From Trueperaceae bacterium (GTDB lineage: Bacteria; Deinococcota; Deinococci; Deinococcales; Trueperaceae): 64,000 bases of DNA. Numbering within the stretch: the first letter of the stretch is position 1; each line of letters starts with the position of its first letter. The stretch lies in assembly GCA_965213925.1 (NCBI GenBank), contig OZ243927.1, forward strand, positions 64,001 to 128,000. Reading direction: 5' to 3'. Below are positions 15,192 to 60,768 of the stretch, piece after piece. Position numbers and translations under genes: made by a program. The notes beneath the pieces were generated by a model. It was given only the letters and a program-made list of their open reading frames with translations, ran no database searches and had not been told where the DNA came from.

Positions 15192-15361
15192 GAGCAATGA
15201 GTTCCGAGCAATTCCCTTTCGGGGTTACGCAGTTTTCCGAAGGAAACGAACGGTGAGCAATAGGTGAGAGAAAAGGACTGAGGACTGACGACTGAGGTTT
15301 GGTCTTTACTTTTCTCTCAGTCCTCAGTCCTTTAACCTTATTTTATCATTGCTCATTGCTG
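15192..15361. repeat. Composite heptamer repeat (GCAATGA/TCATTGC, AGGACTG) carrying a 42-bp nested micro-insertion at 15212-15253
   Basis: Compared with the empty motif GAGCAATGAGTTCCGAGCAATGAG at 45301. Confidence 0.75.
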
Positions 15362-43639: not shown

Positions 43640-43694
43640 AAGCAATGAGCAATGAGTCTAAAGCCTTTCACTCATTGCTCGGCACTCATTGCTG
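43640..43694. repeat. GCAATGA/TCATTGC heptamer inverted repeat
   Basis: AGCAATGAGCAATGAG...CTCATTGCTCGGCACTCATTGCT. Confidence 0.75.
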
Positions 43695-45300: not shown

Positions 45301-45370
45301 GAGCAATGAGTTCCGAGCAATGAGTAAAAGTCTTTCAACTCATTGCTCATTGCTTTCAACTCATTGCTTC
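45301..45370. repeat. GCAATGA/TCATTGC heptamer inverted repeat (empty reference copy)
   Basis: GAGCAATGAGTTCCGAGCAATGAG...CTCATTGCTCATTGCTTTCAACTCATTGCT. Confidence 0.75.
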
Positions 45371-48140: not shown

Positions 48141-48262
48141 AGCAGCAACGAGTTCCGAGCAATGCTCCGACCGCAGGGAGACCGCCCGCAATGAGTCAAA
48201 AGCAACGAGTCTAAAGCCTTTCACTCACCGTTCGTCCAGCTCGACTGGATTGCTCACCGCTT
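48141..48262. repeat. Heptamer repeat with two micro-insertions (48165-48193 and 48228-48249)
   Basis: Comparison with copies at 43640 and 45301. Confidence 0.7.
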
Positions 48263-54577: not shown

Positions 54578-54695
54578 AAGCAATGAGTGAAAATCTTTAG
54601 ACTCACCGTTCGTTCCTTCGGCTAGTGGGAGCGTATGCGACTGTACTGCGTAACCAGCTCGACTGGATTGCTTTCAACTCGTTGCTCATTGCTTC
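54578..54695. repeat. Heptamer repeat with 62-bp nested micro-insertion (54606-54667)
   Basis: CTCA[CCGTTCGT...CCAGCTCGACTGGA]TTGCT. Confidence 0.75.
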
Positions 54696-60747: not shown

Positions 60748-60768
60748 CCGTTCGTCCCCGAAAGGGGA
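60748..60768 (+). mobile_element. 21-bp hairpin micro-element in a CTCA^TTGCTC site
   Basis: CTCA[CCGTTCGTCCCCGAAAGGGGA]TTGCTC. Confidence 0.7.

Follow-up and report, generated by a model that had tools for sequence, protein, structure and literature searches.

Small dispersed repeats (SDRs) of Nostoc punctiforme and its relatives, SDR4-6 especially, were reportedly described by Elhai et al. in 2008 (Genome Res 18:1484) as units of ~21–27 nt with conserved ends around a variable hairpin. Their mobility is said to have been shown by units inserted in sequences that are otherwise nearly the same, in many cases heptamer arrays or another mobile element. How such ~20-nt pieces of DNA move is a question that has been standing since. 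Here we analyze two families of hairpin micro-elements, A and N, in a 64,000-nt stretch of bacterial DNA (the window, G000:C1:64001–128000) together with its host genome G000 (4.75 Mb, ~58% G+C, 96.9% complete) and two congeners, G001 and G002, whose flanking genes are 75–92% identical to those of G000. Both families were inserted as exact units and without target-site duplication.

Other small or hairpin-dependent elements offer points of comparison. IS200/IS605 insertion sequences carry hairpins at both ends, need the Y1 transposase TnpA and insert seamlessly 3′ to a short target. The Rickettsia palindromic elements, the GC clusters of yeast mitochondria and the ‘byp’ elements measure ~30–150 nt and are often kept in frame. 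Repetitive extragenic palindromes (REPs) come with a GTAG or a CGTC tag, and the CGTC type, according to PMC3733652, has an 8–9-bp stem with A/T first pairs, a 4–5-nt loop and a CCA tail, and also occurs without a dedicated transposase. The tyrosine transposases associated with REPs (RAYTs) are introduced in PMC2817692. The SDRs receive a secondary account in the background section of PMC2884548 and are treated as confined to Nostocaceae in the passage of PMC5861425 that concerns them. Our literature searches returned no description of the element system presented here.

A family-A unit is composed of an 8-nt head, CCGTTCGT, a 12–13-nt hairpin and a terminal A, 21–22 nt in all; head and terminal A are constant and the hairpin, with a stem of 4–5 bp, is interchangeable. 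An earlier note on this DNA had proposed such a unit, with four filled sites and two empty arrays in the window, and every string was found where it had placed it:

15212..15253, minus strand: composite element of 42 nt, CCGTTCGT + TTCCTTCGGAAAACTGCGTAA + CCCCGAAAGGGAA; head CCGTTCGT at 15246–15253, family-N unit TTCCTTCGGAAAACTGCGTAA at 15225–15245, hairpin CCCCGAAAGGGA and terminal A at 15212–15224.
48228..48249, plus strand: simple family-A element of 22 nt, CCGTTCGT-CCAGCTCGACTGG-A, between CTCA and TTGCT.
54606..54667, plus strand: composite element of 62 nt; head at 54606–54613, 40-nt block at 54614–54653, hairpin CCAGCTCGACTGG and A at 54654–54667.
60748..60768, plus strand: simple family-A element of 21 nt with an alternative hairpin, CCGTTCGT-CCCCGAAAGGGG-A, between CTCA and TTGCT.
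43640..43694, no strand assigned: unoccupied host hairpin with GCAATGAG units, a central loop and CTCATTGC units, in a 7-base period.
45301..45370, no strand assigned: second unoccupied host hairpin array, with 7-base periodicity.

The two unoccupied sites are unbroken CTCATTGCT-type arrays in 7-base register, built as long inverted repeats. The element at 15212 lies in the left arm of such a heptamer-array hairpin and that at 48228 just 3′ to the loop of another. The 15212 hairpin differs from that at 60748 by a single G>A change. The 40-nt inner block of the element at 54606 ends in ACTGCGTAA and belongs to a recurring subfamily with three genomic copies, this site included; this corrects the earlier suggestion that it holds a third insert, since its inner structure did not resolve into a clean third insertion. 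The host hairpin pattern (GCAATGAG-N10–30-CTCATTGC) has 73 matches in G000 and none for the reversed control, and an Rfam scan of the window gave no matches.

The direction of change is insertion, as observed in two insertion sequences. The first is present in four copies of 995–999 bp, 99.9–100% identical (one of them at G000:C1:2309091–2310089), each with a 22-nt unit at nt 782. Computational removal of exactly 22 bp fused two open reading frames (ORFs) into ...RKRFI|IETVNDQLKNISQIEH..., with IETVNDQLKN after the joint. The ORF halves match Pfam DDE_Tnp_1_3 at profile positions 2–133 and 134–154 of 155, so that the break loses and duplicates nothing, and the element sits just ahead of the conserved IETVN...LK motif. 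The four identical split copies could be explained by mobilisation from another copy, by repeated hits at one site or by bypass. The second insertion sequence, which looks IS3-like from a reading of its translated flanks rather than from a family scan, has received a 42-nt insert at C1:1241333 and a 22-nt one at C1:1242291. A paralogue near 2.914 Mb, 75% identical to it, lacks the 22 bp at 1242291, where the alignment runs straight through and the frame is kept; it has an insert of its own elsewhere (C1:2913923). Beyond these two insertion sequences, no further element was detected in any long open frame of G000.

We then compared filled and empty alleles in the congeners. Three of the four window sites (15212, 48228 and 60748) have clean empty alleles in a sister species. 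At 15212, both G001 and G002 are empty (gagcaat|gag); the opposite arm of this hairpin is in turn filled in G002 alone, by a 43-nt composite, and empty in G000 and G001. At 48228, G001 reads CTCATTGCTCGTTGC unbroken with the same right flank, and G002 has a composite of ~150 nt one heptamer further on. At the place orthologous to 60748, G001 reads CTCGTTGCTCA|TTGCTCGTTCCTCATC unbroken. The G001 spacer corresponding to 54606 holds an element with different inner modules.

The reverse survey took all 73 pattern sites of G001 (26) and G002 (47) with 500-nt flanks, mapped them onto G000 with both flanks required within 1.5 kb, and scored presence or absence in the interval. Both flanks could be placed for 53 sites, the other 20 being without a mappable ortholog. 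No element was present in the G000 interval at 33 of the 53. Seven intervals hold an oppositely oriented element only. In eight the orientation agrees but the element is another one, and five of the eight map to the IS3-like copy and are therefore paralogues, not orthologues; three are identical and two hold a hairpin only. Among seven gap alignments shown, five are clean. In one, at a non-array site (L160, CTCGG^TAGCCC), the boundaries cannot be shifted and delimit a 22-nt unit, CCGTTCGT...CTGGA, with no target duplication. Since occupancy differs between sister species, insertion (or loss) went on after their split.

Genome-wide counts of the family-A motif go beyond chance: CCGTTCGT occurs 188 times in G000 and is preceded by CTCA in 32 cases, against 7 for the runner-up 4-mer, and the gapped pattern CCGTTCGT-N0–30-CCAGCTYGACTGG, the kind of motif search that had been proposed, yielded 41 matches vs none for the reversed pattern. 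A regular expression for head, hairpin and terminal A recovered 61 instances, corresponding to 57 distinct sites. The base at position −1 of these sites is A (50/57) or G (7/57), as it is in relatives (A 68/74, G 6/74), and never C or T; positions −2 and −1 read CA at 40/57 G000 sites. The target put forward earlier, CTCA^TTGCT, holds for the majority in a relaxed form, the context CTC[AG]^TT[GA]C surrounding 37/57 sites in G000 and 43/74 in relatives, but it is not fixed: the remaining elements lie in insertion-sequence genes, in a gttagagCA^AAGCTCAG repeat, in GTCAGC-type arrays and in other places. The position occupied most often is the arm just 3′ to the loop of heptamer-built inverted repeats. 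Element lengths are stepwise: 22 nt (21 cases), 41–43 nt (18), 46 nt (6) and 62–67 nt (6). A miniature inverted-repeat transposable element (MITE) is defined by terminal inverted repeats and a target-site duplication, whereas the ends here, CCGTTCGT and ...CTGGA, do not form inverted repeats and no duplication accompanies them.

The hairpin varies while its pairing is kept. At least seven types of perfectly paired stem directly follow the head (TTGC/GCAA, TCAC/GTGA, TCCC/GGGA, TTAC/GTAA, TCTC/GAGA, TCGC/GCGA and TTCC/GGAA), and at one orthologous site (L182) a paired change separates two species, CCC..GGG to CTC..GAG. Constant ends with an interchangeable hairpin were found, and so was covariation within the latter. 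In a subfamily of five sites (G-CCGTTCGC-hairpin-G), head position 8 and the last base change together.

Inner blocks of the composite elements define family N. All are built alike, as T-stem-3-nt loop-stem-A with (A/G)ACTNCGTAA or a tail related to it behind, and measure 19–24 nt. The word ACTNCGTAA occurs 185 times in G000 vs 52 for the reversed word, and a perfect hairpin of at least 4 bp ending at most 2 nt upstream accompanies 79 of the 185, vs 3/52 and 3/86 in controls. Among these 79 copies we counted 60 kinds of hairpin, in several host contexts. Read on the opposite strand, family N becomes a head, TTACGNAGT, plus hairpin, that is the family-A plan, with loops GAA, GTA or GCA closed by a C-G pair. 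N units insert where head and hairpin of a family-A element meet (the head|hairpin joint), in the triloop of another N hairpin (e.g. TCC-T[24 nt]GC-GGA) and in other repeats, among them CTCAGTCC heptamer arrays and a ~115-bp GGGTCTCG... repeat. A longer hairpin, CCAGC[20–22 nt]ACTGG, looks like the standard one with a further block in its loop. The ‘Russian doll’ nesting of family N inside family A is real, and the extra 21 nt that had been noticed after the head of the 15212..15253 element is the family-N unit TTCCTTCGGAAAACTGCGTAA.

Two observations concern the N units and their hosts. A dispersed repeat of ~115 bp with 84–98% identity is present on G000:C1, e.g. at 479770–479884 and in at least 18 other places; the GGGTCTCG...CTGTCAGAGGAGTCAGCAAG repeat is of similar size and carries a family-N unit after GGGTCTCG(G) in 16 copies, and the two are probably one family. 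Also, one family-N loop reads CTCC at G000:C1:~1857240 and ATTC at G002:C1:~45500 within near-identical DNA; change in the loop seems to outpace that of the sequence around it. Hairpin diversity and this loop change fit a hairpin-remaking process or fast local change, and fit plain copy-and-paste poorly.

The elements are distributed across one genus and, patchily, beyond it. No phycobilisome family was detected in the 96.9%-complete G000, to which search a Synechococcus control responded; this is no ordinary cyanobacterium, and the lineage looks like Trueperaceae (Deinococcota). The site-specific micro-element system claimed for a non-cyanobacterial lineage is supported, by this result and by filled and empty alleles at orthologues and in paralogous insertion sequences. 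Trueperaceae bacterium records L021, L041, L042, L045, L065 and L067 carry the same arrays and elements. Counts in G000, G001 and G002 are respectively 73, 117 and 55 for the host hairpin, 41, 26 and 47 for family A, and 27, 31 and 22 for the family-N tail. In other relatives, family A was found in 0/38, the N tail in 0/28 and the host hairpin in 2/28 with one match each. A phylum sample had family A in 4/301 genomes, the three of the genus and G260, an unpublished genome of another genus with three copies.

An identical 21-mer is present in at least 14 assemblies titled Anaerolineae, Anaerolineales, Anaerolineaceae, Chloroflexia, Chloroflexota or Ca. Desulfolinea, and five of these Chloroflexota carriers, searched again with the gapped family-A pattern, gave 4–18 matches each. 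These copies stand in other flanks, of ~51–53% G+C, after ...GCA, ...TCA or ...AGA, which argues against contamination by Deinococcota during binning. They form head-to-tail tandems and carry other nested hairpins, and both phyla also have a head variant, TCGTTCAT, joined to this hairpin. The 21-mer is rare in Chloroflexota, being found in 0/400 evenly sampled genomes besides the query genome, and family N was not enriched in the Chloroflexota carriers. In other phyla, singletons with odd gap lengths were at about chance level (~17 expected for the gapped pattern, by estimate). That the 21-mer is the same in every letter suggests that the elements, and possibly their mover too, have spread horizontally.

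Three further loci can be mentioned here. In a Chloroflexia genome (L114, G045:C6:40000–53000), eight same-strand copies lie between short unrelated genes (hydrolases, methyltransferase, NYN, isochorismatase) in a cassette-array-like arrangement with GTTAGGC-like motifs nearby, which might be read as an integron. Two loci of the same sequence, from two viral contig records (L111 and L112), hold the 21-mer in DNA that is richer in AT and looks coding, and the usual CA/T flanks are missing there; they are treated as chance or unrelated. One typical copy (..cgcgaagCA followed by the element) stands under an uncultured Alphaproteobacteria title (L051), either a further host or a mis-binned contig.

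We are highly confident that the elements are real, precisely inserted mobile units. The explanation that we regard as likely is that they are non-autonomous micro-elements comparable to SDRs or REPs and mobilised in trans: they are far too small to code and must be moved by something else. The earlier claim of mobilisation in trans stands to that extent, from element size only. As to how they move, hairpin-prone targets, seamless insertion and an unpaired head beside a hairpin of conserved structure and variable sequence lead us to infer a folded single-stranded DNA substrate. Such a folded element would be handled by a structure-reading nuclease or transferase, as in REP/RAYT or IS200/IS605, and the mobilising enzyme would not be a recognisable Y1 HUH transposase of G000. 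This single-strand hairpin mechanism is possible, if on the doubtful side. What is shown is where the units land: family A after A (less often G), mostly in heptamer hairpin arms, and family N at the head|hairpin joint, in N triloops and in other repeat arrays, with nested composites of stepwise length as the outcome.

A wider form of it can be drawn up, which is tentative and which we think rather unlikely as a whole. It would be a cross-phylum system among the smallest mobile DNAs (19–24 nt), in which single-stranded hairpins are cut-and-pasted or resynthesised, the stem changing and the head staying fixed, by an activity not recognisable as a transposase of the HUH, DDE, serine or tyrosine kind; heptamer arrays would serve as landing pads and the shared 21-mer would mark recent horizontal spread of the machinery.

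Several results weigh against the explanation that we regard as likely, one being that no mobilising enzyme was found. Y1_Tnp (PF01797) has no match in the 96.9%-complete G000, nor in G002. Nearly each family-N copy has its own hairpin, which copy-and-paste from a master copy does not predict. Folds are weak: the simple element, at −3.9 kcal/mol, is matched by 15/200 shuffles and composite elements fold no better than shuffles, so the structural case stands on covariation, not on energy. All four copies of the DDE_Tnp_1_3 insertion sequence are filled and no empty copy was detected in G000, G001 or G002; the polarity at that site is read from the frame and nothing else. As to the replication-strand bias that a single-strand model predicts, neither cumulative GC skew nor long-ORF orientation defined replichores, with a usable origin or terminus, in G000. 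Finally, there is no sign of very recent movement: in ~44 kb aligned as four blocks of a 45-kb stretch of G002 C1, which has 95.5–98.3% identity to G000 and holds several elements, no filled/empty difference was observed. The split DDE_Tnp_1_3 insertion sequence as a whole was absent from G001 and G002.

The near-identical DNA deserves a comment of its own. G002 C1 (24.2–69.4 kb) and C7 are 95.5–98.6% identical to G000:C1:1.836–1.881 Mb and 4.136–4.144 Mb, other loci being 75–92% identical, which reflects either a binning mixture or recent exchange; between G000 and these two contigs no filled/empty difference was seen in the near-identical portions. Contigs from sequencing runs, which break up at repeats, showed no 21–22-nt gain or loss among the alignments displayed, a result that is uninformative.

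The search for an enzyme covered several classes. G001 has one PF01797 match only, within a reading frame (at least 1106 aa) whose product appears to be a methyltransferase/restriction enzyme and which has no element in its neighbourhood. Among Chloroflexota carriers, PF01797 matches number 0 in G041, 9 in G042 and 1 in G045. G042 has two tandem RAYT-like genes (151 and 167 aa) between element copies at G042:C7:7112 and 8880; these copies are in direct orientation, amid many other hairpin repeats. A domain scan of G000 covered 20 of 47 multi-copy ORF families, and those scanned include IS1, HTH_32-domain, DDE_Tnp_1_3, DDE_3, ISL3 and phage-type integrase families. When 322 ORF pieces of the Chloroflexota loci were compared with G000 by tblastn, only ordinary conserved genes were retrieved, e.g. 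a three-gene cluster at 36–61% identity. For GIY-YIG there is no exclusive link to the elements: the ORF (91 aa, no elements nearby) has homologues in 3/3 genomes of the genus but also in 6/28 element-free relatives. Two other multi-copy families were seen in passing, a group II intron protein (reverse transcriptase, maturase, HNH) in four copies, one at G000:C1:291150–293060, and a full-length RecA ORF (G000:C1:1383089–1384174) in a family of three ORFs at least 85% identical.

No dedicated enzyme would be needed if units were copied between hairpin-prone repeats where forks stall, either by template switching of the polymerase or by short-patch gene conversion; hairpins would make the polymerase fall off and re-anneal, and the elements would be templated insertions that spread passively. 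We consider this unlikely, and yet keep it as a serious rival on account of N-hairpin diversity and the loop change, ATTC vs CTCC, in near-identical DNA. It would agree with the lack of a candidate transposase co-occurring with the elements, with targets that are hairpin-forming repeats and other elements, with the head-to-tail tandem arrays in Chloroflexota, and with hairpins that are diverse yet always self-complementary, since snap-back synthesis yields these automatically. Against it, unrelated sites, some of them in coding DNA unlike the arrays, have boundaries that agree to the single base, and microhomology between flank and element end was not seen beyond one base. Moreover, head and tail are conserved and polar, and a 21-mer that is letter-identical across phyla speaks for specific recognition.

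Alternatively, the elements could be REP-like products of a RAYT-type Y1 (HUH) transposase, present in some Chloroflexota carriers and lost from G000, whose copies would be fossils. This we find quite unlikely. The nine Y1_Tnp matches of G042 and its two RAYT-like genes between element copies would suit such an origin, as would the unchanged occupancy, without gain or loss, of the aligned blocks in the 45-kb G002 stretch; the head-plus-hairpin plan and seamless insertion also resemble those of REPs and IS200/IS605 (PMC2817692 and PMC3733652). On the other hand, G041 has 18 gapped family-A matches and no Y1, and G000 and G002 are without Y1 although insertion sites are mostly private to each species of the genus. 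The G042 elements are direct, not inverted, and the hairpin repeats next to them could be the true cognate REPs; nor is family N enriched in Chloroflexota carriers.

If the copies were cis-acting signals under selection (terminators, RNA motifs or motifs that bind protein) and had originated where they stand, this would account for conserved pairing and for the location of most of them, which is intergenic and in hairpin arrays beside gene ends. Copies that disrupt genes, identical units at dozens of unrelated sites and in another phylum, weak folds and the lack of an Rfam match in the window make this very improbable; elements may nonetheless have a function after insertion. Scarcely credible is the idea of a single longer ancestor from which deletions left the short forms as remnants, empty sites being precise losses: with three species and no outgroup, presence and absence cannot be polarised by phylogeny, but a transposase domain is split by 22 bp without loss or doubling of any profile position, the second insertion sequence is interrupted relative to its paralogue, inner modules stand alone in unrelated hosts and several different modules occupy one joint. 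Interrupted frames and a paralogue without the insert thus show that the short forms are not such remnants, and the clean empty alleles whose absence the earlier note would have held against itself were found.

Taking the elements as non-autonomous units moved in trans, their closest known kind would be the SDRs of Nostocaceae and then the tagged REPs, a placement made from descriptions and not from the sequences of SDR1-8. With SDRs they share the size class (19–24 nt for family N and 21–22 nt for family A, vs a reported ~21–27 nt) and, by the definition attributed to SDRs, conserved ends around a variable hairpin (CCGTTCGT with CCAGCTYGACTGG, CCCCGAAAGGGG and others; ACTNCGTAA with 60 hairpins). 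Filled and empty look-alikes, 7-base tandem arrays and other repeats as hosts, nesting and an unsolved mechanism are likewise reported for SDRs. Unlike SDRs, they have Deinococcota and Chloroflexota, not Nostocaceae, as hosts; one unit is letter-identical between phyla, and two families of mirrored polarity nest in each other. The second interacting family and the sharing of a 21-mer between Deinococcota and Chloroflexota are the facts added here.

Compared with REPs, there is similarly a short, unpaired, conserved tag beside a hairpin, a mostly intergenic location with composite clusters, and families specific to lineages; copies number tens per genome here, not >100. The letters CGTC also span the head|hairpin joint. 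Stems are, however, of 4–5 bp instead of 8–9 bp, GTAG and the CCA tail are lacking, and the present elements are documented to enter genes, and one another, by exact insertion. G000 has no rayt gene, hence no rayt flanked by two inverted REPs. The elements resemble IS200/IS605 in seamless insertion without duplication, reliance on a hairpin and polarity. They differ in having a single hairpin within their 22 nt and no Y1 gene in the genome, and their target is looser, with A or G at −1. Rickettsia palindromic elements, GC clusters and ‘byp’ elements are also tiny hairpin units that can sit inside genes and each other; the present ones are smaller, and the one intact-looking gene family hit was frameshifted by the 22 bp.

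For the standing question of SDR movement, this genus offers a cleaner test bed, with exact boundaries, polarity from broken transposase frames, many species-private sites, two interacting families and one unit shared with another phylum. Since the distribution is so patchy, the gene that mobilises the elements could feasibly be sought by phyletic comparison. In practice, the elements fragment assemblies, break genes and remodel intergenic hairpins.

Finally, the surroundings of the 15212 site can be noted. It is flanked by two paralogous ORFs of 191–192 aa, which appear TerD-like on a reading of their sequence rather than by a family scan. A second type of 7-base array (GACTGAG / CTCAGTC units, forming an inverted repeat) adjoins the site at window positions 15264–15330, and arrays of this CTCAGTCC type host family-N units elsewhere in G000.

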